Below are positions 47,104 through 64,000 of a stretch of DNA of 64,000 nucleotides, piece by piece. Position 1 is the stretch's first letter; every line of letters starts with the position of its first letter. Origin of the DNA: Actinomycetes bacterium (GTDB lineage Bacteria > Actinomycetota > Acidimicrobiia > IMCC26256); assembly GCA_046081705.1 (NCBI GenBank), contig JBJTWK010000081.1, positions 26,680-90,679 of the forward strand, in the 5' to 3' direction. Under the pieces are notes generated by a model. The model searched no databases. It was not told the DNA's origin and was given only the letters and a program-made list of their open reading frames with translations. A program made the translations under genes and the position numbers.

Positions 47104-47240
47104 GGGGGCGAAACTACCCAGCCGCGACCCGACGGGCCCACTGTGGCGACGACCGCTGACCCGATCCTGACCCGATCGGGGTGCGCCGACGATGCGGGAT
47201 CGGCCACGATGAGGCTCCGGTCGACGGCCAGGGGGCAGGC

Positions 47241-48452
47241 ATGGTGTTCCGCATCAACCGATCGTTCAGGATCGCGCCCGGGGTGCGGTTCCGGCTCAAC
47301 AAGGGCTCGGTCGGGCTCACCGTCGGGAAGGGCCCGCTCAACTACACCGTGAACTCGCGCGGTCGCCGCACGTCGAGTCTCGGCATCCCGGGGACGGGCA
47401 TGTACTTCCAGGACGTCCGGGGCGGCTCGTCGTCGCGCTCGTCCCGGTCGCGGACCCGCCCCGCACCCGAGCGGGCCGACGCGCCGGCACCGGTCGAGCC
47501 GGAGTACATCCGGGGCACCGCGGCCGAGGCGATCGCGACCTCACTGGCCACCCGGAAGCCGGGCTGGCTCGCGCCCAAGGGCGAGAAGGCGCTCCACCGA
47601 GCCCTGGCCACGCAGGACGCCGCGGCACTGGCGGAGATCGCAGCCGCCGCCGGTCCCTACACGGTGGCGGCGAACGCGCTCCTCGCGATCGTGGCGCCGT
47701 GCGAGGACGACGCCGGGCTCGAGGTGCGGGCGCGCGCCATCTACGCCGCGCTCGCCGCCGGTGATCCCGGGGAGGACGCCTTCATCGCCAAGTACGCGCC
47801 GGGCCTGCGGACCCATGTGCCGATCACCGAGCAGGTCGGCGCGGAACTCCCGATGAGTCGGGTCGGCCTCGCGCTCCTCCACGTCGAGACGCTCCAGGCG
47901 CTCGGGAGGATCGAGGAGGCCGCCGACTACGTGGCGAGCATCGAGCGCGACGAGGTGAGCGCACTCTCGCTCGCCGAACTCTGGATCGCGCTCGAGCGCT
48001 GGAGTGACGTCATCGATCTCACCACGGGGATCGAGAACGCCGACGACCTCTCGGCGCTCATGCTCGTGTACCGCGGGATCGCGTTCCGGGAGCAGGGGTA
48101 CTTCGACGCGGCCCGTGAGGCGTTCCGCGCCGCGCTGCGGTCCAAGAAGCGCAGTCCGCTCGTCCGCCACCTCGCGCTGTTCGCCCGCGCGCAGTGCTCG
48201 GTCGAGCAGCGCCGGTTCGCCGCGGCCCGCAAGGACCTCGAGACGATCCTCAACGAGGACCCCGCCTACGACGGCCTGCGCGAGGCGCTCGACGCGCTCG
48301 GACCGGCGAAGGCCCGCGGGCGCGGTGGCGCCGAGGCCGGATCCGCGGCGCCGGACGAGGACGGCACGGACGACGACGCCACGGACGACGACGGCACGGA
48401 CGACGACGAACCGGCGACCGGCCCGGCCGGGCCGCCCACGATGCTCACGTGA
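47241..48452 (+). CDS. DUF4236 domain + TPR protein
   Basis: FRINRSFRIAPGVRFRLNKGSVGLTVG...SLGIPGTGMYF; TPR-like YRGIAFREQGYFDAAREAF. Confidence 0.8.
   Translation: MVFRINRSFRIAPGVRFRLNKGSVGLTVGKGPLNYTVNSRGRRTSSLGIPGTGMYFQDVRGGSSSRSSRSRTRPAPERADAPAPVEPEYIRGTAAEAIATSLATRKPGWLAPKGEKALHRALATQDAAALAEIAAAAGPYTVAANALLAIVAPCEDDAGLEVRARAIYAALAAGDPGEDAFIAKYAPGLRTHVPITEQVGAELPMSRVGLALLHVETLQALGRIEEAADYVASIERDEVSALSLAELWIALERWSDVIDLTTGIENADDLSALMLVYRGIAFREQGYFDAAREAFRAALRSKKRSPLVRHLALFARAQCSVEQRRFAAARKDLETILNEDPAYDGLREALDALGPAKARGRGGAEAGSAAPDEDGTDDDATDDDGTDDDEPATGPAGPPTMLT
48360..48404 (+). repeat. 3 x 15-nt tandem repeat encoding an acidic tail (DGTDD/DATDD)
   Basis: GACGGCACGGACGAC / GACGCCACGGACGAC / GACGGCACGGACGAC. 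Confidence 0.85.
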
Positions 48453-48458
48453 AGCGGG

Positions 48459-50333
48459 TCAGGCGCCGGGTGTCGTGAGGATCTCAGCGAGGCGATCGGC
48501 GGGCATCGGGCGGTGCAAGCCGTACCCCTGACCGAGTCCGATCTCGAGGGCGACGAGGGTCTCGCGCTCGGCGTCGGTCTCGATCCCCTCGGCGAGCACG
48601 CTCAGCCCGAGACTCGCAGCCACGTCGGCCTGCGCGGCGACGAGCGCCTGCGCCGCCGGATCGCCCTCGATCCCCGCCACGAAGGAACGGTCGACCTTGA
48701 TGCCGGTGAACGGCAGGTCGCGCAGGCGCGCGAACGACGAGTAGCCGGTGCCGAAGTCGTCGATCTCGAGGGCGAACCCCGCCGCCCGCAGGGTGCGCAG
48801 ACCCTCGATGACGGTTGCGTTCTGCACCACGGCACTCTCGGTCATCTCGAAGCAGACGTGCCGGGGCTCGACCCCGGACCGCTCCGCGATCGCGAGGACG
48901 CGCGCGGCCGCGTCGGGTTTGCCGAGGTACGCACCGGACAGGTTGATGGCGATGCGGAACTCACGATCCGCCGGGGCGAACCGCTCGACGGTGTCCCGCA
49001 ACGCAGTCGCGATGATGTGCTCGGTCACCGCGTCGATCACGCCGATCCGCTCGGCGATCCGGATGAGGCGCTCGGGCGGGACCGTCCCGGTCATCGGTGC
49101 GTCCCAGCGGGCCAGGGCCTCGGCGCCGACCACCCGGTCGGTCGTGAGGTCCACGACCGGCTGGTAGGCGAGGTGGAGGAACTCGAACGCCTCGGCGACG
49201 TTGAGCACCTCGGTGAGTTGGAGGCGTTGGGCCACCCGGGCGCCGACCTCCGCGTCGAAGACCACCGTCCGGGCTCCGCCGTACCGCCACGCCTCGCGTT
49301 CCGCCGCCTCGGCCTCGGCGAGCAGCTCCGCCGCTCGACGGACCGCCCCCCGATCGACGGCGGCGCCGATGCTCGCGGTGATGCGCACCGACCGGCCGGC
49401 CATGACGAAGGGTTCCGCGAACGCCTGCTCGAGACCGGCGGTGAACTCCGCGAGCGCGAACTCGGTGGCCTCGGGCACGACGAGCACGGAGAACGCGTCG
49501 CTGCCGAACCGTCCGAGGATCGCCGCGTCGGGGGTGGCGGCCCGGAGGCGGGCCGTCACCTCGATGAGCACCTCGTCACCGAGCGCGAACCCGAACGCGT
49601 TGTTGATCTCGGTGAAGCCGTCGAGGTCCACGATCACCGCGACGATCGGCACCGGCCGGCGGGCCTCCCGGACCTCGGCGATCACCGACTCGACGTCGGC
49701 GGCGAAGGCCGCCCGGTTCAGGAGCCCGGTCAGGCGGTCCGTGCACTCGGCGTGGGCCACCCGCCCCTCGTCGTGTCGCCGTCCGACCGCGGCGGCGATC
49801 GTCTCGCCGATCGTGACGAGCACGTCGACGTCGACCCAGGAGAGCTGACTCCGGTGCGTGACGTAGTCGAACCCCATGAACCCGAGGAGTTCGCCGCCCG
49901 AGCGCAGCGGCGTGACGATCAACGAGCGGATGCTCTGCGCCGCCAACACCTCGCGGAGTTCCGCATCCTCGTCCGGGATCGCGTCGACGTCCTCGATGAA
50001 GACGTGCTCGGACTCCTCGAAGGCGTCGAGCCAGCCCTGTGCGAGATCCCGCGGCATGTTCTGGAGATTGTCGATCTCCGGCGAGATCCCGTCGGCGCAC
50101 CACTCGTGGGTGTTGTCGACGAACGCGCCCCCGGGTTGGAACTGGAACACGTAGGCGCGGTCGACCCCACAGAACTTCCCGACCTCGGCGAGCGTCTGGT
50201 CGATCGCCTCGTCGAGCCCGGCCACGGTCCGACCGGCGAGGGCCTGCATCACCGAGCGCGAGATGTTGTGCAGCCCGACGGCGCGGTCGACCTCAGAGCT
50301 CGACAGCGATCGCCGTTCGGGGATGCCGCTCAT
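48459..50333 (-). CDS. GAF-GGDEF(degenerate)-EAL protein, probable c-di-GMP phosphodiesterase
   Basis: GAF DRAYVF...THEWCA; DRLTGLLNR; GGDEF replaced by GSDAF; intact EAL, EMTE, DDFGTG, KVDRSF, AEGIE, QGY. Confidence 0.93.
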   Translation of the reverse strand: MSGIPERRSLSSSEVDRAVGLHNISRSVMQALAGRTVAGLDEAIDQTLAEVGKFCGVDRAYVFQFQPGGAFVDNTHEWCADGISPEIDNLQNMPRDLAQGWLDAFEESEHVFIEDVDAIPDEDAELREVLAAQSIRSLIVTPLRSGGELLGFMGFDYVTHRSQLSWVDVDVLVTIGETIAAAVGRRHDEGRVAHAECTDRLTGLLNRAAFAADVESVIAEVREARRPVPIVAVIVDLDGFTEINNAFGFALGDEVLIEVTARLRAATPDAAILGRFGSDAFSVLVVPEATEFALAEFTAGLEQAFAEPFVMAGRSVRITASIGAAVDRGAVRRAAELLAEAEAAEREAWRYGGARTVVFDAEVGARVAQRLQLTEVLNVAEAFEFLHLAYQPVVDLTTDRVVGAEALARWDAPMTGTVPPERLIRIAERIGVIDAVTEHIIATALRDTVERFAPADREFRIAINLSGAYLGKPDAAARVLAIAERSGVEPRHVCFEMTESAVVQNATVIEGLRTLRAAGFALEIDDFGTGYSSFARLRDLPFTGIKVDRSFVAGIEGDPAAQALVAAQADVAASLGLSVLAEGIETDAERETLVALEIGLGQGYGLHRPMPADRLAEILTTPGA

Positions 50334-50422: not shown

Positions 50423-53400
50423 TCAGACCACGGCCAGACTGCGCACGATCCCGACCGACTCGGCCAGCACGGCTCGCCGGGCCCGAAGCGCCTGCGTCTC
50501 CTCGTCGTCGGTCCCGAGGAGCGCGAGGAGCGTGTCGATCGCCGCCACCTCCTCGACCGGGAGTCCCTGGGCCGCAGCCGCCGACAGTGTTCCCCGCACC
50601 GCCGCCGCGGCACGGAGCACATCGCCGGCGCGTGCGAGGAGCGCGGCATCGAGGCGCGCGAACCAGATCGGGAGCATGCCGGTGCGCTCGAGCTGGTCGA
50701 CCCGAGGGCGCGCCGAATCCAACGCGACCCGTGCGGCCGCATCGTCACCGGCGAGGAGGTGTGCCTCGGCGATCCGCAACTCGGTGTCGACGGCCCACGA
50801 CGCGTGGCCCAGGGCCCGGAAGCCTTCGAGCACATCCTCGAGGAGCTCGAGCGCCCGGGCGGAGTCCCGGCGCCACGCGGCGGCACGACCGAGCCCACTC
50901 CGCGCGAGCAGGAGACCGTCCCGGCTCCCGATCGCCCGGAACCTGCGCTGCGCGTCCGAGAAGTCGGCGACCGCCTCGTCGTACCGGCCGAGCCCGGCGA
51001 GGCACTCACCGCGGTTGTGGATCGAGAGTGCGGCGCCATCGGCGTCACCACACCGGCCGAAGGCCTCCGCCGCGGACCGGAACAGGTCGAGCGCCGGAGC
51101 CGGTCGATCGGCATCCATGTTCGCGACACCGAGATTGAGGTCGAGGCAGGCACGCCGGAAGTCGTCGCCGGAGCGTGCCATCGCCGTGCGGGCACGCGTC
51201 GCGTAGGGCTCGCCGTCCGGATGCCCGAGGAAGGCGGTCATCGTCGCCGCTTGGAGGAGCGCCTGGGCCGCGCGCTCCCCGCCGATCACCTCTGCGCGTT
51301 CCAGCACCCGCAACGAGACGCCGAGCGCGGCGCGATTGCGGTCCTGATGGTGCAGCGTGGATGCGTAGGCGAGGTGGGCCTCGATCTCCTCCGACTCCTT
51401 CGCCGGCGAATCCGCGCACCGTGCACAGGTCGAGATCGCCCGCCGGTACCAGCGCAGCGACTGCGGGAGGGCACCCCCACGCGCCGTGACCTCTCCCCGC
51501 TTGCGCAGGACGCGGGCCCGCTCGACGCTCGGATCCTCGGTCAGGCGCTGGGCCCGGGCGAACCACCGCTGCGCTGCGTCGCGCTCCCCGATCCGGTACG
51601 CGAGGTCGCCCGCCTCCTCGCAGAGGGCCACGACCTCGGACCGGTCGACCCGATCGATGCGATCGGCCACCCCGATCGCATCGACGGCGAGGGCGTACCC
51701 GTCGACCGGTGCGGACCGGTCGACCGCATCGCGCAGGGCCCGACGGGTCCACTCCCATGCCAGATCGAGCGCGCGGCCGGTGACAGCGTGGAACGCGAGC
51801 AGGGCCGCGTCCGGGGTCGCCCCGCCGGCGAGTCGATGCGCGACCGCGGCATGCAACGCGCGACGGCGGGTGAGCGACAACCCCTCGTAGGCGATCTCCC
51901 GGAAGGCCGGCTCACGGAACTCGGCCACGCCGTCGGCGACGACGACGAACTCCTCGGTGCCGACCCAGGCGTCCTCCTGCGCGGCACCGGGATCGCCGAT
52001 CACGTCGGCGAGCAGTCCGAGATCCACCCGGCGCCCGAGCACCGCCGCCTCCCGGAGCAGGAGACGCGGCCGGGTCGGCACCGCATCGATCCCGGCGGCC
52101 ACGACCCGCTCGACGGTCTCCGGCAGCGCGCCACCGCTCTGCGCCGCCCCGGCGAGACCCCGGAGGAAGAACGGATTGCCCGCGCCGAGCACGAGCACAC
52201 GCTCGAGCACGTGCTCACCGATCGGCGCGTCATCGGTGAGATCGATCACGAGATCCCGCGCCGCCGCCGCGCCGAGCGCAGCCAGTTCGAGCCGTCGCCG
52301 GTCCAGGTCGTCGAGGTCGCACTCGTCCCGGTGCGCGATCACGACACCGAACGGAGCGCCGAGCCCGACCTGCCGTGCGAGCCGACGCGCGAGGGACTGC
52401 GACGCGTCGTCGAAACCCCCGAAGGAGTCGAGCACGAGGGTCGTTCCGGGATCCAGCGATGCCGCGAGCAGTTCGGCGACGACCTCGTCACGCCGGTCCG
52501 CCACGAAGTCCGGGCCGAGCGCATCGACCTCGGCCGTCCGACCCGCAGTGGCCCCGATGGCCTCGGCGAGCAGCGGGAGCCACGGTCCGAGCCGAGCGGC
52601 GTGGGCAGCGACCCGCGCCGCGAGGGCGGCCCCGGCCGCCCCGGGGGATGCGTCGTCGTCGATCATCAGCGCACGCCGCACCAGCTTGCGGGCCGCAGCG
52701 AGTGGTCGGTGCTTGGCGTAGGGCTCGCCCGTGACCCGGACCACCCGGCCGCCCCGGGCCGCCACGACCTCGTCGACCAGGCGGGTCTTGCCGATGCCGG
52801 CCGGGCCCGTCACCTCGATGACCTCGCCGGCCTCGAGCGCCGCGAGGAGCGCGGCGGCCTCCGCGTCGCGACCCACCATCGGCGTGGCGCGTGCGTCAGC
52901 GACGTCGGCGGCCGACCGGATCTCGATCAGATCCACCGTCTCGACCGGCGCCGCCTTGCCCTTCGCGCGGAACGGCGCACACGGCTCGGTGCGCACCCGG
53001 CCGCGCACCCGCTGGAGCAGGGGCGCGTGGACGAGCAACTGCCCCGGGGCGGCGTGGGCCATGATGCGCGCCGCGAGGTTCGTCGCGTCGCCGCTGATGC
53101 TGTACGTGCGTCGCTGCGGATGCCCGACGTCGCCCGTGAAGTTCCGGCCCCGGTTCACCCCGATCGCGAGATCGAGGCCGAGATCGGCATCGAGGATCTC
53201 CCGGGCCGCCACGAGGAGGCGGTCCTCGTCGTCCTCGTGGGCGACGGGCGACCCGGCCACGAGGACGAAGTCGGCCGCGCCGGGGAGAGCATCCGCACCC
53301 ACCCAGAGCAGTCCGTACTCGTCCTGCACCCGCTCGATCTCGACCGCGAGCGCCTGCAGACGCTCGACCGTCGCCACAGCGCCATCGTTCGCCAACCGCC

Positions 53401-54172
53401 CGTCGAGGTCGCGCACCCCGACGAACGCGAGGCTCAGCTGACGGTGCTCACCCGGGATCGCCCCGGCCGCGAGCAGGTCACGCACCGGCTCCGGCACGCA
53501 CGCGCGCGCGATCTGCGGGTCCACCTCCCCGTCGAAGTCACCGTCGTCGGTCCCCGGGTCGAGCGGCACCCGGAGGAGACGCGCCATGCCCGTACCGGTC
53601 GGCCTCGACCACGCGGCCGGGAGGAGCGCTGCGGTCTCGGGTGTCACGAGGACCTGGGTGGCCTCGGCCTCCTTCTCGGCCGCGAGCGCGCGACTGATGT
53701 GCTCGCCGAGCGCGAGGACGACGCACTGACGCGACCCGAGGCGGGCGAAGGTCGCCGGCCCCGCGTGCATGCCGACCGACATCCGGAGGCGGACCCGGCC
53801 GATCTCCGATGTGATCGATCCGTGGTCCCGGATGAACCGCTGCATCGCCACCGCGGCGTGGGCGGCTCGGACCGGGTGCCCGTCACCGGTGAAGTGCACG
53901 AGGATCGCGTCGCCGCTGAACTGCAGGACGTCCCCGCCCTGCGCTCGTGCGGCGGTGATGAGCCCGACGAAGAGCATGTCGGCGATCTCCGTGATCGCTT
54001 CGGCTCCCTCGGGCCCGAGGCGGGCGAGGCGCTCGGTCAGGCGGGTGTACCCCGAGACGTCGAAGAACCCCAGCGTCCCGTCGACGACCTGGAAGGGCAC
54101 GCCGTCGGGCCACCGGTGTGCGAGCCGCGACCCGAAGACCGCGAGCCGCCCGTCTCCCCCCGCGCCGACCAC
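50423..54172 (-). CDS. Soluble-adenylyl-cyclase-like protein: two class III cyclase domains + STAND/AAA ATPase + TPR
   Basis: Domain 1 FFDVSGYT...QFSGDA (metal Asp pair); domain 2 TYSISGDATNLAARI; Walker A GPAGIGKT; EFREPAFREIAY; TPR-like C-terminus. Start chosen at the GTG after GGAGG (ORF open from 54289). Confidence 0.88.
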   Translation of the reverse strand: MVGAGGDGRLAVFGSRLAHRWPDGVPFQVVDGTLGFFDVSGYTRLTERLARLGPEGAEAITEIADMLFVGLITAARAQGGDVLQFSGDAILVHFTGDGHPVRAAHAAVAMQRFIRDHGSITSEIGRVRLRMSVGMHAGPATFARLGSRQCVVLALGEHISRALAAEKEAEATQVLVTPETAALLPAAWSRPTGTGMARLLRVPLDPGTDDGDFDGEVDPQIARACVPEPVRDLLAAGAIPGEHRQLSLAFVGVRDLDGRLANDGAVATVERLQALAVEIERVQDEYGLLWVGADALPGAADFVLVAGSPVAHEDDEDRLLVAAREILDADLGLDLAIGVNRGRNFTGDVGHPQRRTYSISGDATNLAARIMAHAAPGQLLVHAPLLQRVRGRVRTEPCAPFRAKGKAAPVETVDLIEIRSAADVADARATPMVGRDAEAAALLAALEAGEVIEVTGPAGIGKTRLVDEVVAARGGRVVRVTGEPYAKHRPLAAARKLVRRALMIDDDASPGAAGAALAARVAAHAARLGPWLPLLAEAIGATAGRTAEVDALGPDFVADRRDEVVAELLAASLDPGTTLVLDSFGGFDDASQSLARRLARQVGLGAPFGVVIAHRDECDLDDLDRRRLELAALGAAAARDLVIDLTDDAPIGEHVLERVLVLGAGNPFFLRGLAGAAQSGGALPETVERVVAAGIDAVPTRPRLLLREAAVLGRRVDLGLLADVIGDPGAAQEDAWVGTEEFVVVADGVAEFREPAFREIAYEGLSLTRRRALHAAVAHRLAGGATPDAALLAFHAVTGRALDLAWEWTRRALRDAVDRSAPVDGYALAVDAIGVADRIDRVDRSEVVALCEEAGDLAYRIGERDAAQRWFARAQRLTEDPSVERARVLRKRGEVTARGGALPQSLRWYRRAISTCARCADSPAKESEEIEAHLAYASTLHHQDRNRAALGVSLRVLERAEVIGGERAAQALLQAATMTAFLGHPDGEPYATRARTAMARSGDDFRRACLDLNLGVANMDADRPAPALDLFRSAAEAFGRCGDADGAALSIHNRGECLAGLGRYDEAVADFSDAQRRFRAIGSRDGLLLARSGLGRAAAWRRDSARALELLEDVLEGFRALGHASWAVDTELRIAEAHLLAGDDAAARVALDSARPRVDQLERTGMLPIWFARLDAALLARAGDVLRAAAAVRGTLSAAAAQGLPVEEVAAIDTLLALLGTDDEETQALRARRAVLAESVGIVRSLAVV

Positions 54173-54242
54173 CGTGGAGCCGTCCTCCGTCGAACCGGCG
54201 AGCCACCGCCCGCGCCGTGACGCGGACGGTAGCGCGCGGAAC

Positions 54243-57200
54243 TCAGTCGTCGTTGAGGATGGTGACGGTACCGACGGAGCGCAGGACACCGGTTCCGGTG
54301 AGCACGACCTGGAACGTCTCGTCGGCCTCGTTCGCCGTGTCGGGCTGGATCGGGATGCTGAGGACCTTCCAGTACGAGGCCGCTTCGAACTTCAGCGTGC
54401 CGGAGGTCTTCACGTAGTCGCCCGTCGCACCGGCCCGGGCCGCTTCGGTCGCGCCTCCCGCCACCGTGCGCGTCGTGTAGTTCACCGACACCGCCTTGGA
54501 CTGCGGACCCGAGAGCCGTACGAGCAGTTCCACGTTGCGGGTCCCGGTGTTGCCCTCGACGATCTTCGCGTCGCCGATGGTGATGCGCGGCTGCACCATC
54601 GTGATGCCGTCGTCGTTGAGGATCACGCCGGTACCGACCGAACGACCGAGGGGCACGACCGTGGCCTTCGTGAGCACGAGTTCCATGCGCTCGTCCGACT
54701 CAGCCGTGAGATCCGGCGTCACGTTCACCTCCACCGTCGCGGCGAGCGATCCGGCCGGGATCGTCACCGAGGCGTTCGTGGCGGCCTTGAAGTCCGAGCC
54801 CGGGCTGGCCGGGACCACCCCGGTCGAGGCCGTGACCGTCCGGGTCGAGTAGGTGACCACCACGTTCGAGGTCTGTGCGGCGGTCAGGGTGACCCGGAAG
54901 CGCAGCGACCCGTTCTTCGAGTCACCCTCCCCGACGCTGCTGTCCCCCACGTTGACGCTCACCCGCGCCAGACCCGGGATGGTCGCGGTGCCGAGGGGCT
55001 TGGCGAGGTCGGCGTTCGTCGCCGAGTCGACCACGAGTCCGAAGGACTCCGTGAACTCGCGTTCGGTGTCCGCGAGCACCGGCACCTCGACCACCTTGGT
55101 GGTCTCGCCGGGTGCGAACGTCAATCGCCCGGCGACCGGCAGGAAGTCCGAGAGCGCCGTCGCCGAGGCGTCCGCCGTCCGGTACGCGACCGTGACCGGT
55201 ACGGAGGTCGCGGCGCTCAGCGTGACCGGGAACGACGCGTTCGCCGTCCCGGTCGCGGGCTCGGCGATCGTGATGTCGCCCACGGTCACCGTCGGTCGCA
55301 CGACGGCCGGGAAGAGCGAGCCCTTGTTCGAGGCCACGCCCACGTTCCCGTTCACGTCGACCACCTGCACGTAGTAGGGGGTCGTCGTGGCCGACGACGC
55401 GACCGTCGCGGTCCCGGTCCACCGGGTCCCCGCCCCTGCGGTGAGGTCGACCCGACGCCAACCCGTCGAGTCCCGGAAGAGGACGACGACGCGCCCGATG
55501 CCGGCGCCGTCGGCGGCGTCGACGTCGAACGTCGCGACGCGGGTCGTGCCGTTCACCCGGGCGTCGACTCCGAGGATCGTCGGCTCGGTGAAGTCACCAC
55601 TCGCCGAGTAGAGGACGCTGCCCTCGACCCGGGAGAAGAGTTCCTGCGTGCCGGTGCCCGCGGTGTCGCGCGAGCCGTTCGACTCGAACCGGCCGGGGGT
55701 GAGCACGATGCGCTGCCGCTGCTTCGGTCCGTTCGTGGCGAACGGAGCCCCCGACGGATCGGAGTAGGTGCTGATCGTTGCGAAGCGGGCCGGGAACGCC
55801 ACATCACCGGCCACGATCTCGGGCGCGGTGGCCGCGTCGTCGACCGTCGCGCGAGCCCACGCGGCGTCGAACCCGGTCAGCGGATTGCCCGCATCGGTGA
55901 GCGCCGTGATGAGCGCACCGTGGGCCGGGAGCAACTGCCCGTTCGTCCGCGCCGTGACGTCGCGGTCGACGCGGGGCTGCGTGGGCCGGCCGGGGAGCGT
56001 GAGCGGCAATTGGCCGGCGACCTCGTACCACGCACCGTCCGGACCGGTGCGCTGGGTCAGCGCGCCCGACATCGGGATGGCGGCGGCTCCCGGGTTCGCC
56101 TGGTCGTAGACGAACGACGCCGACGACACCCCACCGGTACCGGCGGTCGGCGTCACGTCGGTGGGCGCCGGACGCGTGACCGCCGCCCCACCCACCCTGA
56201 AGAACGGGAGGCCGTACAGGTTCATGCTCTCGAGCACCTTGTCGTCGTAGGTGCCGTAGAGACCCTGGGTCGAGAAGTACGTCTGCTTCGCCCGGACGAG
56301 GGCATCACCGATGGTCACTGCGCCGTCGAGCTCGCCCGCGAAGAACCCGATGAGACGGTCGTGGAGCTGCACGCCCGAGTCGTCGCCGTACCCGAACCCG
56401 GTCGCTGCGAGGTACACAGCACCTCGGGCGAGCAACTGCTCCGGGAAGTCGGCGCCCCCGCGGGCATCGCTGAGTCCGGCGTGGCACCCCATCGAGAACA
56501 CGAGGTTGGTACCGGCCGGGAGCGCGGCCGCGAGTTCGGCCGGGGTGAAGAGATCCGCCCCGTCGGCGGAGCCCTGGGCCGAGACGCCCGACAGGTGGTC
56601 GGCGTGCATGAACAGGTTGGTCACCCTCGCCTGGGTGGCCGCGATGCTGCCGGCACCCGTGAGGAGGTTCGCGCTCGTCCACGTGTCGTTGATGAGTTCG
56701 ACCGGCGTCACGGGGTCGTCCCCGTTCGCCGTCGTGAGCTTCGTCGCCAACGTCGACTTCACCGCGGTCGCCCCGGGCTTCATCCAGTCGTAGCCCGTCA
56801 CGAGGGCCTTCGACGGGTCGAGCACACCACCACTGGTGAGGTAGGTGTCGATCACCTCGGTCATCTGCGCCGGGGTCTCGACGAGACGTCCGACGGCGAG
56901 ATCTTCGACGTACAGGCGCCGGTTGAGCCACGGGATCGGGTCGAGGTCGCCGTACGCCGCGTCCGTGAGGAAGTGGCTCGTGGCGAACGCCGCGCCGATC
57001 GGCGAGCCGGGATCGAACGCGTCGGCGTACTGCGACTCGTTCCCCGAGCGCGTCGTGTCGACCGCACGGGCCATCGGGACCACGTCGTCGGAGCCGACGA
57101 CGACCACGTTCGCGATCTGCGGGTGCGCCGCCACCCCGGGCAGGGAACCGTTGCGCAGCCCCTGCACGAGTTCGGAGATGCGTCGCACCACCGTGTTCGT

Positions 57201-60200
57201 GAGGGTCGGGTCGCACGGCTTCGCCGCGAGCGCCGCGTACGCACCGGCCACATCCGGGTACCCGGCGTTGCGGGCGGGGCTCGAGCCCTCAACCGGGAGC
57301 ACGACGCCCCGTACGGAGGGATCGGCGGCGAGCGTCGCCACCTTCGCGAGCAGCGCGCTCACATCGGCCCCTGGGAACTGGTCCCCGAGGCGCTGGAGGT
57401 TGACGAGGAACACCGTCCGGACGTCGGCCGGGACCGTCGTGAGGTCCGGCAACGTGCCCGGCGCCCCCGAGAACGGGTGGTCGTACGGCAGGCACTGCGG
57501 CACGGCCGTGGCCGCGACCTCACGGACCCGGAGCACGTACGGCAGGTTCGAGACCGCCCCGCGGTAGGCGCTCACCTGCACGAAGTTCGCGCCACGACCG
57601 ATCGCGTTCTCCTCATCCACCACGCTCGACGTCGCCGAACGCGCCACGACCGTGGTGCCGGCCGGTGCCCCGACCGGTACATCGGCGGAGAGTTCAGGTC
57701 GAGGCGCGACCTGATTGCTGGTCGGATCGATGCCCTCATCGTCGATCGGCGCCACCTGCGGCGCGATCGCGCGCGAGGCCACCGGGCTGATCCCACTCGT
57801 CGGGGTGTCCTGCGGCGGACCGAACAGCACGAGGTCGCCGTCCCCGGCGAGATGGCTGAGACGGACACCCACCTGGGTGTCGACCGATCGGGGCGAGAAC
57901 GAGTAGAGGTCGACGTCGCCGCCGTCGGCGAGGTAGCCGAACTGCAGGCGGTCGGACGCGATGGACGCCGCAGTCCCCGCGTTCGATCCGGGGTCGGTGC
58001 CCTCCACCACCCGGACCTCGAGCGGGGTCGCGTCCGTTCCGACGGTCTCGACCTCGACGCGGGCCGAGACCTGACCGGCCCCGAGCCCGAGGCTCGGGAT
58101 CACCCGAGCGACGACCGAGTAGTTCGTGTTCGAGGTCACTCCGGACACGCCGACGATGAGCAGCGTCGCGTCCTCGCTCACCTGCTCGTCGAGGACGCGG
58201 ACCGTCGGGGTGCCCGTCCCGGTCACCCGCAACGGCGCGAGCCCCGACCGGACCGTCGGGTCGAGGCGGAACCCGGCCGGCATCCGCACCAGCACGCGGG
58301 CGTCGAGGCCGGCGATGGTCCCCGTGGCCTGCGCCTGGAAGGTGGTGGTGTAGTCGACCGTCGTCACCGGGTCGGCGAAGCGCGCGAGCCCCGCGGCCTC
58401 GAGGTCGAGTTCCTCCCACGGGAAGTCGATCGCATCGAGGTAGCCGGTGACGACGTCGTTGACGGTGATCCCGTACAGCACGATCGAGCCGAGATCGGAG
58501 AGCGCCAGCGGTCCCAGCGCCGGGTCCTTGAAGTGCTTGCCGAGATCGGCGAGGGTCGCCGTCGGCCGGATCGCCCCGGCGTCGACCGCCGCACCGAGGT
58601 CCGCACCCGGGCAGGTGAACGACGCGGAACAGACCGCGAACACGGCGAGTTCCGCATCCGTGAAGTCGTCGAGCGGCACCGCACGGAGCGCCGATGCGGT
58701 ACGGACCGCACCGTCGAGCGCCGAGGCGCCGAGCCGGGTCACGTAGAGGTTCAGGTCGTCGAGCAGGGTGTCGAGGACGGGTGCGCTCTGCAGCTGGAGG
58801 GTGAAGAAGTTCCGTCCGACATCGATCTGACGGAGCTCCGGGTGCTCGGCGAGCAGCAGCGCCGCATCCGGGATCATGTCGAGTTCCATGAGCGTGCGGC
58901 CCGTGCCGTCCGCACCGAACTCGGCGCAGGTCCGGCCGGTGACCGACGCGAACTGCGTGCACCACGGCACGAACGGCGCGGCGGTGAGGTCGCTCACCGG
59001 CGTGTTGCCGAGTTCGAAACCGACGGGCGTGATCGCGATGAGCGGCGAGTCGTCGAGCACGAGGTCGCCGACCGTCAGATCGGCGAGCGCCGGCGAAGCG
59101 GCCTGCGCGGTGTAGAGGTCGAGCAGTGCCCCGACGCTCACCGACTGGATCGGGATGCCGTCCAACGGCGTGCCCGCAAGCAGGGCCGGCCAACCCCCAT
59201 CCGTCGTCACGCCGATCTGGGACAGCGGCGCGTCGCGGACCGCATCGACGGTCCCGAGCCGGGTGGCGAGCGACGACACGAGCGTGCTGGCGACGTCCCG
59301 GAGCCTGGTCCCGCCGGGCCGCAACCTCGTGCCCCCCGGCCGCAGCTTCGTCCCGCCGGGTCGCAACTTGGTGCCCCCCGGCCGCAACTTGGTGCCCCCC
59401 GGAGCGGTCGACACGTCGAGTCCGAACCCGCGCAGGGCATCCGTGGGGATCGCGTTGATCGCCACGCTCGTCGCTCCCGGCGGCGTGTTCAGGGTGCTCG
59501 CCGCCAGGCTGACGGTCACGCCCGTGAGCGCGTTCCCGAAGCGCGTCACGTAGACGTCCTCGGCGCCCGCGAACGTGTTCGTGTCCGCCGCGATGAGCGG
59601 ATCGGGCGAGGTGAACACGACGGTCGGGCGCGCCTGCGCGATCATCACCGTGCGCACGCGCGCGTCGGTCCCGCCGGAGTCCTTCACGGTCAACGAGGTC
59701 CCGTCCGTGAACCGCACGTACCCCGTCATGAGCGGGAAGTCGATGTCGTTGATGTAGGAGACCGTCCCGTCGTTCGCCACGTCCGGCGCGCCGGCCCAGC
59801 TCGTCGGGACGGCGTTCGACATGAGGGTGAAGCCGCCGTCGGCCGCCTCGTCGTACACACCGTTGTTGTTGCCGTCACGATCACGGCGGTAGACCCGGCT
59901 CGTGCCGGTCGCCGACGGGAGGGACGCATCGTCGCTGGCGATGGTGACGAATCGCCCGTTCGCGCTCATCGCACCGAACGATCCGCCGGCGAACGTGGCG
60001 AGCCCGGCGTTGCGGGCCGCCGCCGTCGAGGTACCGGTGTTCCGGTCCCAGATCGCGACGTCGGGCCGTGCGTTCGTGTCGGCCGCGTTGATGCCGGACA
60101 CGGTCGAGAACGCCACGAAGCGACCGTCGTCACTCACCCGCGGTCCGCAGGCCCGCACCGCGCTGCCGTAGGCGAGGTACCCGCACGACGTCGTGGAGGT

Positions 60201-61040
60201 GAGCACCGAGCCGCCGCCCCCCCGACTCACCCAGGTCGTGGACACGCCGCCGGGCTCATCGAACACGCCGTTCGCGTCGGCATCGCGGTCACGCAACCAC
60301 ACGACGTTGAAGTAGCTGCCCTCGATCTGCGGGCCGCCGAACGACGGTGCATCGGATTCGAACGCCACGAACCGACCCGTCGAGGAGATCGACGAGCGAC
60401 CGGTGGTGCAGCCGTCGGCCGGGACGCTCTCGGTCGATCCGAGCGTGCCCGTCGCACTCACGAGTCGCGTGGCCGTCGCACCCGGTTCGTCGAGGATGCC
60501 ATCGCCGTCGGTGTCACGGTCGCGGACGTAGACCTCGACCCCGTCGCAGCCGTCACTCCCGGCGATGCCCGGGAGGATGCTCCCGAGCGCGGTGAAGGTG
60601 ACGTACCGACCCGTCGCGCTGATCGAGGGATCCGCGGCGCTGTAGGGCTGGAGACCGGTCTCGCCCCGACTGACGAGGTGCGTCTCCCCCGAGACGAGGT
60701 CGCGGACGTACACGTCCTCCTGACCGAAGTTCGAGTCCTCGGGAACGAGGGACCCGCGCGTGACGAACGCCACGTGCTGTCCGTCGGCCGAGATCGCCGG
60801 TGCGCAGTCCTTGGCCGACCACAGACCGTCGTAGTTGCTGCACGAGCCGTTCGTGATCTGCTCGCCGTCGGGCCCGACGCTCGCACGCTCGAGACTCAGC
60901 GCGATGGGCGCGGCGCCGGCGCCCGGCGCCGTCGCGAGTTCGATGCCCACCATGCCGCTGACCCCGATGACGGCGGCGAGCAGCGCCGAGCCGATACGAC
61001 GGATCGGCCCGCCGCGCGAGATGTCCTGCCGTGCCTGCAC
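54243..61040 (-). CDS. Giant secreted protein (~2265 aa): TolB-like beta-propeller, heptad repeat, C25/caspase-like peptidase, Ig-like and Calx-beta domains
   Basis: Signal peptide; PAISADGQHVAF/DVYVRD repeats; PGGTKLR x5; VVVVGSDDVVP, DLAVGRL, FMHADH, SMGCHAG; three Calx-beta units ending TILNDD. Confidence 0.85.
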   Translation of the reverse strand: MQARQDISRGGPIRRIGSALLAAVIGVSGMVGIELATAPGAGAAPIALSLERASVGPDGEQITNGSCSNYDGLWSAKDCAPAISADGQHVAFVTRGSLVPEDSNFGQEDVYVRDLVSGETHLVSRGETGLQPYSAADPSISATGRYVTFTALGSILPGIAGSDGCDGVEVYVRDRDTDGDGILDEPGATATRLVSATGTLGSTESVPADGCTTGRSSISSTGRFVAFESDAPSFGGPQIEGSYFNVVWLRDRDADANGVFDEPGGVSTTWVSRGGGGSVLTSTTSCGYLAYGSAVRACGPRVSDDGRFVAFSTVSGINAADTNARPDVAIWDRNTGTSTAAARNAGLATFAGGSFGAMSANGRFVTIASDDASLPSATGTSRVYRRDRDGNNNGVYDEAADGGFTLMSNAVPTSWAGAPDVANDGTVSYINDIDFPLMTGYVRFTDGTSLTVKDSGGTDARVRTVMIAQARPTVVFTSPDPLIAADTNTFAGAEDVYVTRFGNALTGVTVSLAASTLNTPPGATSVAINAIPTDALRGFGLDVSTAPGGTKLRPGGTKLRPGGTKLRPGGTRLRPGGTRLRDVASTLVSSLATRLGTVDAVRDAPLSQIGVTTDGGWPALLAGTPLDGIPIQSVSVGALLDLYTAQAASPALADLTVGDLVLDDSPLIAITPVGFELGNTPVSDLTAAPFVPWCTQFASVTGRTCAEFGADGTGRTLMELDMIPDAALLLAEHPELRQIDVGRNFFTLQLQSAPVLDTLLDDLNLYVTRLGASALDGAVRTASALRAVPLDDFTDAELAVFAVCSASFTCPGADLGAAVDAGAIRPTATLADLGKHFKDPALGPLALSDLGSIVLYGITVNDVVTGYLDAIDFPWEELDLEAAGLARFADPVTTVDYTTTFQAQATGTIAGLDARVLVRMPAGFRLDPTVRSGLAPLRVTGTGTPTVRVLDEQVSEDATLLIVGVSGVTSNTNYSVVARVIPSLGLGAGQVSARVEVETVGTDATPLEVRVVEGTDPGSNAGTAASIASDRLQFGYLADGGDVDLYSFSPRSVDTQVGVRLSHLAGDGDLVLFGPPQDTPTSGISPVASRAIAPQVAPIDDEGIDPTSNQVAPRPELSADVPVGAPAGTTVVARSATSSVVDEENAIGRGANFVQVSAYRGAVSNLPYVLRVREVAATAVPQCLPYDHPFSGAPGTLPDLTTVPADVRTVFLVNLQRLGDQFPGADVSALLAKVATLAADPSVRGVVLPVEGSSPARNAGYPDVAGAYAALAAKPCDPTLTNTVVRRISELVQGLRNGSLPGVAAHPQIANVVVVGSDDVVPMARAVDTTRSGNESQYADAFDPGSPIGAAFATSHFLTDAAYGDLDPIPWLNRRLYVEDLAVGRLVETPAQMTEVIDTYLTSGGVLDPSKALVTGYDWMKPGATAVKSTLATKLTTANGDDPVTPVELINDTWTSANLLTGAGSIAATQARVTNLFMHADHLSGVSAQGSADGADLFTPAELAAALPAGTNLVFSMGCHAGLSDARGGADFPEQLLARGAVYLAATGFGYGDDSGVQLHDRLIGFFAGELDGAVTIGDALVRAKQTYFSTQGLYGTYDDKVLESMNLYGLPFFRVGGAAVTRPAPTDVTPTAGTGGVSSASFVYDQANPGAAAIPMSGALTQRTGPDGAWYEVAGQLPLTLPGRPTQPRVDRDVTARTNGQLLPAHGALITALTDAGNPLTGFDAAWARATVDDAATAPEIVAGDVAFPARFATISTYSDPSGAPFATNGPKQRQRIVLTPGRFESNGSRDTAGTGTQELFSRVEGSVLYSASGDFTEPTILGVDARVNGTTRVATFDVDAADGAGIGRVVVLFRDSTGWRRVDLTAGAGTRWTGTATVASSATTTPYYVQVVDVNGNVGVASNKGSLFPAVVRPTVTVGDITIAEPATGTANASFPVTLSAATSVPVTVAYRTADASATALSDFLPVAGRLTFAPGETTKVVEVPVLADTEREFTESFGLVVDSATNADLAKPLGTATIPGLARVSVNVGDSSVGEGDSKNGSLRFRVTLTAAQTSNVVVTYSTRTVTASTGVVPASPGSDFKAATNASVTIPAGSLAATVEVNVTPDLTAESDERMELVLTKATVVPLGRSVGTGVILNDDGITMVQPRITIGDAKIVEGNTGTRNVELLVRLSGPQSKAVSVNYTTRTVAGGATEAARAGATGDYVKTSGTLKFEAASYWKVLSIPIQPDTANEADETFQVVLTGTGVLRSVGTVTILNDD
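59298..59402 (-). repeat. 5 x 21-nt in-frame tandem repeat encoding PGGT(K/R)LR
   Basis: CCGGGGGGCACCAAGTTGCGG / CCGGGGGGCACCAAGTTGCGA / CCCGGCGGGACGAAGCTGCGG / CCGGGGGGCACGAGGTTGCGG / CCCGGCGGGACCAGGCTCCGG. Confidence 0.95.
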
Positions 61041-61162
61041 CGTGCGCCCCCCGCCCACGGCCGGATGCCGCGATCCGGCCGAAATTACCCACGGAGGGTG
61101 GTACCCGGCAAGACCCAGCACTGCGGAGCGTGGCGGGACTCTGACGGCGTGGCCCGCCCGGA

Positions 61163-62986
61163 TCAGGCCCAGTGCCGCGCACCCCCGCTTGCGATCCAGG
61201 CGTCGAGGATCGGGCCGGCATCCCGCTCCCCGCCGACGACGAGATCCTCGAACCGGTCGAAGTCGAGGAGGCTCACCCCCTCGAGACCGGGGCGCACGTA
61301 GCAGTCGCCGCGATCACCCGGGTCGCCGGCGCCGAGTTCGGTGAGGCGCATCAGGAGTTTCGGCAGCCCGAACGCGCTCCCGAGCGCCCGGCGCCGAGCA
61401 CCCTGGGTGAGGGCGCGCCATCCGGAGACCGCACCCTCGGCCGAGCCGCCCGCCCCGGTGAACTCCTTGTTCGCACCGACGTCGATGGCGATCACGGTGA
61501 TGCCCTCGTGGAGCGAGCGCATCGTGCTCACCGGCATGTTGTCGAGGACCCCACCATCGACGAGTGTCTCCCCCGCATCGTTGTGCATCGGCGGGAAGAT
61601 CCCGGGCACCGAGAAGCTCGAACGGATCGCAACCCAGGCCGGCCCCGTCGTGTGCACGTCGAGCGCTCGGGTCGACAGGTTCGTCGACACGCAGAAGAAG
61701 TTGAGCCAGCCGTCCTCGAGGTCGAGGCCGCCTGCGCCGTCCTTGATCCGTTCGGTCACCCGACCACCTGCCGCCACCGACACGGTCGGGAGCGTGATGT
61801 CGACCGGGGAACGGTCGAGCACCGCCGCCCGGATCTGGGTCGCGATCGCGTCCGGCGAGTCGCCGCGCGCCACCGCGCCACCGACGATCGATCCGATGCT
61901 CGCTCCGCCGACCGCGTCGATCGGGATGCCGCGGGCCTGCAGCGCTCGGAGGACACCGATGTGCGCGATGCCCCGAGCGCCCCCGCCGGAGAACACGACA
62001 CCGACTGCACGACCAGTGACCAGTCGCGCCACGCGCTCGAGGTCGGTCGCGGACCCCGAACGCACGTTGTGGTGACGATCGACCGGGCGTGGCGCGAGCC
62101 ACCACCGGGTGTTCCGGGGCGTGGCTGCCGCGGCCGGGTGCACCAGCACCAGCTCCGTCCGGGGCCGCGTGGCTCCGGTGCCCTCAGCGATCGCCGTCTC
62201 GATCGGACGAACGCTCGGGGCATGGGAAGCATCCGCCACCAGCACGATCCGGTCGGCCTGCTGCGCGCACGCGTCGGTCCAGGCCGACGCCACGGCATCA
62301 GCGAGGAACACCGCGCCGCCCGACCGGGTCGCGAGACCCTCGCACCACTCCTGCAGCGCACCGGGGGGCGCGTCGGCACCGACCTCGGCGCGCGCCTCGT
62401 CGCCGTTTCCGGGGCGTGCGCCGGCCACCGTTCGCGCCAGGGTTGCGGCGAGATCGGCCGCCGCCGTGAGCGTCGTCGGGGTGTCGGTCACCGGCACCAC
62501 GACCACGGTGGCGCCCGCGTCGGTCGGCCCGCGACCATGCGCGGTCGCCACCAACTTGCGGATGAGCACGGTCGACACCGCCCGCATCGCGCCGGCATGC
62601 TCCGCCACCAGGGCGTCGAACGCCGCCAGCGGGAGGATCGCCAACCTCGAGTCGCGGATCGCGACCACATCCGCGGAGCGCGGGCCGTCCGTGATGAGGG
62701 CCATCTCCCCTGCGACCTCACCCCGGCCGACCTCACCGAGCACGGTTCGTCCGCCGTCGTCCCCGACGAGCTCGACGCGGAGCCGACCGCGGACGACCAT
62801 GAGCAGTCCGTCTGCCCGGGCGCCTTGGTGGATCACCGTGGTGCCGCGCCGCACTTCGCGGATCTCCATCGCCGCGACGACGGCGGCGCGTGCGTCGGCC
62901 GAGAGCGGCCCGAACACCGCGCTCGCTTCGACGAGTTCCGCGAGGCGGTCCGGCGTCGGACTCACGCGAGGATCAGGATCCGTCAC
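61163..62986 (-). CDS. cNMP-binding domain + patatin-like phospholipase (NTE/RssA-like)
   Basis: Phosphate-binding cassette GEMALITDGPRSADV; patatin motifs SGGGARG, GASIG and VDGG. Confidence 0.93.
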   Translation of the reverse strand: MTDPDPRVSPTPDRLAELVEASAVFGPLSADARAAVVAAMEIREVRRGTTVIHQGARADGLLMVVRGRLRVELVGDDGGRTVLGEVGRGEVAGEMALITDGPRSADVVAIRDSRLAILPLAAFDALVAEHAGAMRAVSTVLIRKLVATAHGRGPTDAGATVVVVPVTDTPTTLTAAADLAATLARTVAGARPGNGDEARAEVGADAPPGALQEWCEGLATRSGGAVFLADAVASAWTDACAQQADRIVLVADASHAPSVRPIETAIAEGTGATRPRTELVLVHPAAAATPRNTRWWLAPRPVDRHHNVRSGSATDLERVARLVTGRAVGVVFSGGGARGIAHIGVLRALQARGIPIDAVGGASIGSIVGGAVARGDSPDAIATQIRAAVLDRSPVDITLPTVSVAAGGRVTERIKDGAGGLDLEDGWLNFFCVSTNLSTRALDVHTTGPAWVAIRSSFSVPGIFPPMHNDAGETLVDGGVLDNMPVSTMRSLHEGITVIAIDVGANKEFTGAGGSAEGAVSGWRALTQGARRRALGSAFGLPKLLMRLTELGAGDPGDRGDCYVRPGLEGVSLLDFDRFEDLVVGGERDAGPILDAWIASGGARHWA

Positions 62987-63407
62987 GGACGAGACGCGCC
63001 TCGCGCAGCTCGCCTGCCATCGCGATGAGCATCTGCTCGGCGAGATCCGGGAACTCTCGCAGCATCGTGCGGAACATCCGGATACCGATGACCGCGACCT
63101 TCACGTCGGTGAGGGCGGTCACCGTGGCGCTCCGCGGCTGGCCATCGAGGACCGCGAGCTCCCCGAAGTAGGAGCCCGGACCACTCCGATCGATCTCCAC
63201 GCCGCCGCGCTGCACGGCCACGTCGCCCTCGAGGACGACGAAGAGCGCGTCCCCGGCCTCCCCCTCAATGACGAGATCGATACCCGCAGCGGCGTCGACC
63301 ACCTGCGCGTGCCGCGCCACGGCACGACGTTCCGCTGCGGTGCAGTGCGAGAACAGCCGTACGCCGTCGAGCGCTTCGGCGAGTTGCTTCTTGACGCCCA
63401 CGTACAT
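62973..63407 (-). CDS. Stand-alone cyclic-nucleotide-binding domain protein (no HTH)
   Basis: LFSHC, EGEAGDALFVVLEGDV, FGELAVLDGQPRSATV; ends after the C-helix. Confidence 0.9.
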   Translation of the reverse strand: MYVGVKKQLAEALDGVRLFSHCTAAERRAVARHAQVVDAAAGIDLVIEGEAGDALFVVLEGDVAVQRGGVEIDRSGPGSYFGELAVLDGQPRSATVTALTDVKVAVIGIRMFRTMLREFPDLAEQMLIAMAGELREARLVRDGS

Positions 63408-63474
63408 CCCCCCGATGCGCGACACGTGCTGTGGTCGATGTGGTAACCATCCGCAGCGTTCGCGCCATCGATGC

Positions 63475-63489
63475 TGCGAACGGTTCGCA
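63475..63489. promoter_or_regulatory. Palindromic operator candidate in the divergent promoter region
   Basis: TGCGAAC-G-GTTCGCA with perfect 7-bp arms, followed by CGATAAA direct repeats at 63490 and 63501. Confidence 0.45.
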
Positions 63490-63518
63490 CGATAAACGCG
63501 CGATAAATGGGGGGCAAC

Positions 63519-64000
63519 ATGCGTCGACTCGCCATCTTGGTGGTGCGCCGACGGTGGTGGGTGATCGTCGCCGCAGCGATCCTCCTGCCGCTCGCGGCGT
63601 TCGTCGCCAAGGACACTGCGCACCACCTCTCACCGACGGGGTATCAGGACCCCGGCGCGGAGTCGTCGCGGGCGACGCGCTCCATCACCGCGGAGTTCCC
63701 CGACGCCGCCCAGTCCGACTTCGTCGTCATCGTGACCGCGCGTGATCCGGGCAAGGTGGACGCTCCCGAGGTCGCCACCGCCGCGGCCGCGCTCGCCGAA
63801 CGCCTCGGGCGCGCTGAGGGCGTCGCCTCGGTCAACTCGTACTGGTCGCTCGGCAATGCACCGCCGCTGCGCAGCCGTGACGGCTCCAAGGCACTCATCG
63901 TGTCCGCACTCCGCGGGGACGAGGGCGAGAAGACGGAACGCGCACTCGAACTCCTCAAGGAGTTCACGGTTCGCAACGACCGAATCTCGACCGCCATCTC
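63519..64000 (+). CDS. MMPL family transporter (5' part; runs off the window)
   Basis: My translation: MRRLAILVVRRRWWVIVAAAILL...GYQDPGAESSRA...SYWSLGNAPPLRSRDGSKALI. Confidence 0.88.
   Translation, partial: MRRLAILVVRRRWWVIVAAAILLPLAAFVAKDTAHHLSPTGYQDPGAESSRATRSITAEFPDAAQSDFVVIVTARDPGKVDAPEVATAAAALAERLGRAEGVASVNSYWSLGNAPPLRSRDGSKALIVSALRGDEGEKTERALELLKEFTVRNDRISTAI

Follow-up and report, generated by a model that had tools for sequence, protein, structure and literature searches.

A bacterial tandem cyclase of the soluble adenylyl cyclase type without the purine-selecting lysine

A class III nucleotide cyclase that divides its catalytic residues between two domains, and whose base pocket departs from that of known adenylyl cyclases, raises the question of what it makes and whether it is active. 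Such a gene was found on the minus strand of the DNA studied here, a stretch of 64,000 nucleotides (the window) from contig JBJTWK010000081.1 of an Actinomycetes bacterium of the class Acidimicrobiia. An earlier note, made by eye from the sequence, had placed a cyclase at 52950-54172 and suggested that its product might not be cyclic AMP (cAMP) or that the enzyme might be weak. According to our analysis, the gene most plausibly encoded an active cytoplasmic nucleotide cyclase of the soluble adenylyl cyclase (sAC) type, the product of which was most likely a cyclic purine nucleotide; we gave this reading a probability of about 0.6.

What does the gene encode? The longest open reading frame (ORF) over the cyclase span had 1,288 codons (50423-54289, minus strand), and its translation (P0001) supplied the residue numbers used below. 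In the protein, Pfam recognised Guanylate_cyc (PF00211) in two stretches, AAA_16, TPR_12 in three stretches and no helix-turn-helix (HTH) family. The gene and its parts were the following.

50423 to 54172, minus strand: tandem cyclase-STAND NTPase-TPR gene, 1,249 aa from a GTG at 54172 (ORF list, translation, homologue starts)
53594 to 54106, minus strand: cyclase domain C1, residues 62-232 (sAC alignment, family columns, model strands)
52925 to 53458, minus strand: cyclase domain C2, residues 278-455, with a KGK motif at 443-445 (sAC alignments, family columns)
52349 to 52879, minus strand: STAND-type NTPase (Pfam AAA_16), residues 471-647
52784 to 52807, minus strand: Walker A motif GPAGIGKT of the STAND NTPase, intact
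52421 to 52438, minus strand: Walker B motif LVLDSF of the STAND NTPase, intact
50426 to 51892, minus strand: C-terminal helical/TPR sensor array, about residues 800-1288 (Pfam TPR_12; profile matches to PDB TPR proteins and AfsR)

The span 52950-54172 covered exactly both cyclase domains, and 54172 was the probable GTG start. The STAND NTPase and the TPR array had gone unmentioned in the earlier note, as had the clade-specific loss of three basic residues at the second site described below.

Is there one active site, and is it complete? All motifs quoted in the earlier note were present in the minus-strand translation: FFDVSG at residues 75-80 (54050-54067), QFSGD at 123-127 (53909-53923), GEHISRALAAE at 195-205, LLWVGADALPGAAD at 327-340 (53270-53311), YSISG at 396-400 and GDATNLAAR at 400-408 (53066-53092). 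The split read from them was accurate. C1 kept both metal-binding Asp residues and C2 kept the Asn and Arg of the transition state, and these residues had direct counterparts in sAC.

54059 to 54061 and 53909 to 53911, minus strand: metal Asp residues of C1, Asp77 and Asp127 (sAC Asp47 and Asp99)
53078 to 53080 and 53066 to 53068, minus strand: transition-state residues of C2, Asn404 and Arg408 (sAC Asn412 and Arg416)

In C1, the Asn/Arg positions were occupied by Ser199 and Ala203, and in C2 the metal-Asp positions were occupied by Gly291 and Ala339; the same pairs are also absent from the C1 and C2 domains of sAC. The correspondences to sAC came from sequence and profile alignments, and the residue roles were those tabulated in PMC12867704. 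Human sAC was the top PDB match for the protein in a single-sequence search (E 3e-15), and a profile built from 119 family members reached it with an E of 2.5e-41 in one alignment that ran through both domains (sAC residues 20-420). An AlphaFold model of residues 40-476 contained two alpha/beta domains with a mean predicted local distance difference test (pLDDT) score of 95.2 and a predicted template modelling (pTM) score of 0.93. When this model was searched with Foldseek, about 24 sAC entries came out best, with E down to 1.7e-28 and template modelling (TM) scores of 0.77-0.82 over approximately 460 columns, and the C1/C2 pairs of membrane cyclases ranked after them. The bacterial family was sampled as 120 metagenomic homologues and 85 species-level genomes. 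Among the latter, Asp77 and Asp127 were present in 85/85, Arg408 in 84/85 and Asn404 in 78/85. Thus, the proposal of one composite site, as in sAC and in mammalian C1/C2, was borne out by the sAC alignments, the invariant or nearly invariant residues and the fold match, and the description of the protein as an sAC-type pseudo-heterodimer with a single composite active site was correct.

How does this site read the base? Three positions of C2 were of interest.

53297 to 53299, minus strand: codon of Gly331, aligned with the purine-selecting Lys (sAC Lys334; the Lys of CyaB 'TIDKFVGD')
53291 to 53293, minus strand: codon of Asp333, two residues past the Lys position, with which it shares a face of strand beta2
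53099 to 53101, minus strand: codon of Ser397, aligned with sAC Thr405 (class IIIb Thr/Ser)

The alignment of sAC Lys334 to Gly331 was given by three concordant lines and by the geometry of the modelled hairpin. MAFFT placed the Lys of distant Chloroflexota members ('..VVNKV..', '..GINKV..'; 'QINKV' in sAC) in the Gly331 column. A profile of C2 alone (HMMER) aligned to sAC without gaps and with Lys334 on column 331, and the same profile put the Lys of 'TIDKFVGD' from P. aeruginosa CyaB on this column with a gap of four residues at the tip of the hairpin. The spacing from Lys334 to Gly349 in sAC was 15 residues, equal to that from 331 to 346 in our protein. The model of C2 had strand beta2 at 328-335, a turn at 336-337 and beta3 at 338-345, and the published beta2/3 loop of sAC (338-341; PMC12867704) corresponded to residues 335-338, which enclosed the modelled turn. 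The statement that no Lys stood at the adenine-selecting position therefore held under proper alignment, and the segment picked by eye was the right one. For the second base contact, all alignments paired sAC Thr405 with Ser397, at a place where class IIIb cyclases normally have Ser or Thr.

Is the missing Lys a peculiarity of this gene? The family was large (species-level genomes contained over 470 matching stretches), and the answer was clear. At position 331, the metagenomic homologues had Glu in 66, Ala in 20, Gly in 16 and Lys in 1 case, and the species genomes had Ala in 25, Glu in 22, Gly in 16, Ser in 7, Asp in 5 and Lys in 3. The absence of the base-reading Lys was the norm of the whole family of hundreds (Lys in 3/85 and 1/120) and not a quirk of one member. 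Position 397 was occupied by Ser in 69 and Thr in 29 of the metagenomic homologues, and by Thr in 51 and Ser in 21 of the species genomes. The earlier note had correctly located this second site in YSISG, but to call it non-canonical was an overstatement since Ser397 is a conservative equivalent of Thr405. The pairs at 331 and 397 differed by family branch and included E/S, A/T, G/T, E/I, E/R and E/A (loci L001-L090).

Asp333 was present in 80/85 species genomes and was absent from exactly four Chloroflexota outliers, which had Lys, Arg or Asn at 331. On the geometry of the modelled strand, Asp333 was a likely substitute base contact across the family. In other branches, Glu331 was combined with Ser or Thr at 397 (54/120 metagenomic homologues and 14/85 species genomes). 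In guanylyl cyclases, Glu replaces the Lys and C, S, T, H, A or G replaces the Asp (PMC4215837); these branches bear a guanylyl-type signature because they match that pattern, suggesting from their residues that part of the bacterial sAC-like family may produce cyclic GMP (cGMP). Our protein did not carry this signature and combined Gly331 with Ser397.

The degenerate second site of the pseudo-heterodimer, which binds bicarbonate in sAC, was also altered. A FastTree phylogeny of 124 tandem-domain sequences put the protein in a clade of 14 members (support 0.997), distinguished from the main family at three positions.

53921 to 53923, minus strand: Gln123 codon, the sAC Lys95 position in C1
53270 to 53272, minus strand: Asp340 codon, the clade's replacement of the family Lys340
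53165 to 53167, minus strand: Ala375 codon, the clade's replacement of the family Arg375
53165 to 53272, minus strand: segment spanning Asp340 and Ala375, the clade-specific changes in the degenerate second site

Position 123 was Lys in 78/85 species genomes of the main family and Gln in the clade, position 340 was Lys or Arg in 73/85 and Asp in the clade, and position 375 was Arg in 49/85 and Ala in the clade. Class III dimers are pseudo-symmetric, and positions 340 and 375 would accordingly line the same degenerate site as 123: the former is next to where C2 lost its second metal Asp, and the latter is the C2 counterpart of the phosphate-binding position of C1. Bicarbonate in sAC is bound by Lys95 and Arg176 (PMC12867704; for Lys95 also PMC12250328). 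Neither had a counterpart here, where Gln123 and Leu202 took their places; the main family retained Lys123 without the Arg, as Arg176 was conserved nowhere in the family. The second pocket is probably cationic in the main family, and its probable neutralisation in the clade would have removed anion-type regulation there. The clade may thus serve as a natural comparison, neutral against cationic pocket, for the tuning of sAC-like enzymes by the bicarbonate-type site.

In the favoured reading, C1 and C2 of one chain would form a pseudo-heterodimer with a single catalytic centre, to which C1 would give the metal-binding Asp77 and Asp127 and C2 would give the base pocket together with Asn404 and Arg408. 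Cyclase activity would probably be gated by the STAND NTPase and TPR sensor of the same chain, and assembly would be driven by ligand binding and nucleotide exchange, on the model of other STAND proteins. The non-canonical pocket would be that of the family, with Gly331, Ser397 and Asp333 as the likely substitute contact, and the second site without its three basic residues (Gln123, Asp340, Ala375) would reflect the clade's probable abandonment of anion-type regulation. The product would most likely be a 3',5'-cyclic purine nucleotide, and our best guess was cAMP made with loosened selectivity. We favoured cAMP because Ser397 is a class IIIb residue, because the Lys334 of sAC touches the base only through water (PMC12867704), because one clade member (P0010) has Lys331, and because the CNBDs (cyclic nucleotide-binding domains) encoded nearby have CRP-like cassettes. 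In sAC, Thr405 contacts adenine (PMC12250328).

Several points weighed against this reading. With Gly331 and Ser397, the protein lacked both the Lys of the adenylyl signature and the Glu of the guanylyl one, and the sister groups with Glu331 and Ser/Thr fitted the guanylyl-cyclase pattern of PMC4215837. Residue 331 differed inside the clade (G, D, K, S, T), which may mean that it is unimportant or that function differs among members. The genome encoded three further class III cyclases, each with the canonical Lys and Asp at the base positions, so that an extra source of cAMP was not obviously needed. Asp333 and the second site were given their putative roles on the basis of homology and strand geometry, and we found no assay of any family member in the literature.

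Could the product then be something other than cAMP? The best-surviving alternative was that the enzyme makes cGMP, mixed purines or a pyrimidine cyclic nucleoside monophosphate (cNMP) as a signal private to the CNBD proteins of its gene cluster, the CNBD-patatin lipase among them, which with the STAND-TPR sensor would form a sensor-gated lipase module similar to Pycsar or CBASS. The neighbouring genes that bear on it were these.

54243 to 61121, minus strand: giant exported protein, 2,292-aa ORF, upstream and co-directional, with Calx-beta domains (Pfam) and a His...Cys 'SMGCHAG' gingipain-like core
61163 to 62986, minus strand: gene for a protein with a CNBD, an NTE P-loop-like part and a patatin lipase (Pfam, translation)
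62973 to 63626 (longest ORF), minus strand: small stand-alone CNBD gene, with its probable start at Met74 (63407)

The two CNBD genes overlapped by 14 nt, and both proteins had CRP-like G-E...R-S-A phosphate-binding cassettes and lacked transmembrane and TIR segments. The genome (2.38 Mb, 99% complete; the window had 72% G+C) contained five CNBD genes. A CNBD gene was located within 6 kb of 17/80 family loci, and a CNBD-patatin gene in 5/80. By a rough estimate, about 5 CNBD genes per 2.4 Mb would give a chance expectation of approximately 2-3% per 12-kb neighbourhood, and the association was thus about eight-fold enriched. This, together with the two CNBD genes of the cluster itself, favoured a private signal. 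So did the lack of Lys331, with related groups showing the Glu and Ser/Thr of guanylyl cyclases (PMC4215837), the Lys/Asp type of the genome's three other cyclases, and the patchy occurrence of the tandem cyclase, which was detected in 2/11 same-genus genomes but not in a closed genome of 99% completeness. Moreover, clade A PycC enzymes likewise have two cyclase domains (PMC11224242), and defence cyclases that produce cGMP have been reported (bioRxiv 10.64898/2026.08.12.744502).

On the other hand, this protein has Gly331 and not Glu, and the pyrimidine-selecting residues could not be mapped. The PycC matches in PADLOC were weak and partial (the best had E 1.6e-10 over 93 residues, 96-188), so that nothing positively marked the cyclase as part of a defence system; the STAND models of PADLOC gave only a marginal, partial match to MkoC (E 0.012, 35 residues). 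The two CNBD genes were missing from 9 kb of upstream flank at the orthologue of the same genus. The recurrent neighbour was the giant secreted protease-like protein rather than a CNBD effector: homologues of its gene adjoined both cyclase copies of the same-genus genome G003 and 12/80 family loci. Taken together, we regarded a private product other than cAMP as a possible but rather doubtful explanation.

The homologues of the giant gene stood beside the cyclase in many phyla, mostly upstream and co-directional and at times divergent (loci L091, L092, L019, L014, L066, L049, L063, L038, L025, L018, L074, L045, L060 and L009). The giant protein also had a pre-peptidase-like 'DVDLYSF' segment.

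A wider form of the same idea concerned the sAC-like family, and notably the Gly331 clade: its members might make no cAMP at all, with base reading shifted from Lys to Asp333. We considered this speculative and unlikely. If true, the Glu/Ser, Ala/Thr, Gly/Ser and Glu/Ile branches would produce different cNMPs, for example cGMP or a non-purine product, as private signals to adjacent CNBD proteins. Here these would include a CNBD-activated patatin lipase, and the locus would be a STAND-gated second-messenger-lipase module tied to a giant secreted protease.

Could the cyclase core instead be feeble or silent, and the protein mainly a STAND scaffold or sensor? This would partly resemble the sGC (soluble guanylyl cyclase) protein of Dictyostelium, which has a catalysis-independent role (PMC8684759). 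The base-reading Lys was gone, residue 331 drifted inside the clade, and the position of the sAC pyrophosphate receptor Lys144 (role per PMC12867704) was occupied by Ser171. However, Ser171 was common to the whole family and the adjacent Arg169 was retained, and all four core catalytic residues were kept, as was the KGK motif. Selection on the protein was estimated by the Nei-Gojobori method against the G003 orthologue (79% identity in the cyclase part, about 64% overall). The ratio of nonsynonymous to synonymous substitution rates (dN/dS) was 0.17 for C1 and 0.19 for C2, in comparison to 0.67 for the interdomain linker and 0.37 for both the STAND and the TPR parts. Both cyclase domains were therefore under purifying selection, with the strongest constraint in the protein, which argued against a decaying or purely structural cyclase domain. 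The suggestion of a weak enzyme found no support here, as all catalytic residues were intact and both domains were constrained, and we judged a silent core to be improbable.

Finally, a misalignment, with a basic residue elsewhere filling the Lys role in a canonical pocket, was highly improbable: a first HMMER profile alignment did put Lys334 at Leu327 (4-residue gap, posterior about 0.6), an hhalign comparison of C1 with C2 put the Lys position at Pro336, and the wider family conserves Lys340, but the first two registers clash with the modelled hairpin, the published sAC loop and the bridging sequences (L070 and L072), Lys340 is Asp in this protein, and residues 318-348 hold no Lys in any register and a single Arg, Arg320, in the preceding helix. 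The Pro336 register would also have put the C1 hairpin turn in the middle of C2 strand beta3. As a displaced base-reading residue, the family Lys340 was set aside since it adjoins the second metal-Asp position, on the side of the degenerate site.

Where does the protein begin? The public record calls the start at Val64, 24 codons past the GTG at 54172 (P0002, 1,225 aa). This start would remove an N-terminal helix that was conserved, aligned to sAC and was modelled with high confidence. It was very probable from the sequence that the GTG at 54172 (Val40) was the true start, because a GGAGGA lay 11 nt upstream of it and the closest homologues, P0003 and P0004 (1,248 aa, 85% identity), have their first residue at the position of Val40.

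54184 to 54189, minus strand: Shine-Dalgarno-like GGAGGA, in the 70-nt gap behind the stop of the upstream giant gene

Thus, the GTG at 54172 was a better start than Val64. A terminator scan found no terminator-like site in the 70-nt gap between the giant gene and the cyclase. A promoter and terminator scan of the cyclase gene and both flanking gaps returned nothing, such a scan being weak at 72% G+C. In practical terms, this gene now has a sound annotation with its start codon corrected.

Two further genes followed downstream.

48459 to 50333, minus strand: GAF-GGDEF-EAL gene, 89 nt past the cyclase stop (Pfam)
47181 to 48452, plus strand: gene for a DUF4236 and TPR protein, weakly matching the N-terminal domain of EccA1; it converges on the GGDEF-EAL gene

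A homologue of the GAF-GGDEF-EAL gene stood beside the cyclase at none of the related loci searched by tblastn, including that of the same-genus orthologue. A link from cNMP to cyclic di-GMP signalling through this gene was accordingly rejected. A second STAND-linked cyclase was located on the same contig at 4116-4592 (minus strand; locus L096), approximately 22 kb ahead of the window. Its one cyclase domain carried the canonical Lys and Asp, but the transition-state Asn was replaced by Thr; the P-loop GEAGQGKT followed in the same 1,114-codon frame, a layout like that of Rv0386.

What do these results add? Bacterial relatives of sAC are abundant and biochemically almost uncharacterised, and we found no paper in the literature describing the base-pocket residues of the bacterial tandem enzymes. 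The label 'adenylate cyclase' on the family rests on no evidence, since the Lys is gone from nearly all members and a conserved Asp stands two residues on. Guanylyl cyclases are considered rare in bacteria, and here part of a bacterial family has a guanylyl-type pattern. The STAND-linked sAC architecture (PMC12802110) and bacterial sAC-like enzymes (the Chloroflexus work cited in PMC11006738) are already known. New here are a secure residue map, the finding that the Lys is missing family-wide while Asp333 is conserved, and a second site neutralised in this clade.

Among known systems, the closest was sAC itself (ADCY10; core structures 4CLF and 4OYA). It shared the tandem C1-C2 arrangement with the same catalytic split (D47/D99 for D77/D127 and N412/R416 for N404/R408), the same extended beta2/3 hairpin of C2, a TM-score of about 0.8 and the class IIIb Thr/Ser position. 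Behind the catalytic core, our protein had AAA_16 and TPR_12, and full-length sAC is described with a predicted P-loop STAND domain (PMC12802110) and TPR-like repeats, to which these parts may be homologous. The two differed in Lys334 (Gly331 here), Lys95 and Arg176 (Gln123 and Leu202), Lys144 (Ser171) and in overall sequence (about 19% identity), and our gene was bacterial and adjoined a giant exported protease-like gene. The Lys-keeping bacterial sAC-like cyclases (Chloroflexus; Chloroflexota loci L070 and L072) belonged to the same family and architecture, with Lys123 in C1 and Ser or Thr at 397. The Chloroflexota relatives had Lys331 without Asp333, and our protein had the reverse. The Chloroflexus sAC-like enzyme was reported to be activated by bicarbonate (Kobayashi et al., as cited in PMC11006738).

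The guanylyl cyclases with Glu and Ser/Thr/Cys/Gly (e.g., Cya2, 2W01; PMC4215837) resembled part of the family, whereas our protein had Gly331. The sGC of Dictyostelium has the sAC topology and yet makes cGMP (PMC8684759). In M. tuberculosis, Rv0386, Rv1358 and Rv2488c likewise have a class III cyclase N-terminal to a STAND-type ATPase. Rv0386 has Gln/Asn in place of Lys/Asp and still makes mainly cAMP. Proteins of the Rv0386 type have a single homodimerising cyclase domain and a LuxR-type DNA-binding end, in contrast to the tandem domains without HTH found here. PycC of the Pycsar systems shared the class III fold, weak PADLOC matches, CNBD-bearing genes nearby and, in clade A, two cyclase domains. 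However, its matches were far weaker than those to sAC, and the CNBD-TIR or CNBD-transmembrane effector of Pycsar had no counterpart at our locus, where the cyclase was instead joined to a STAND NTPase and a TPR array.

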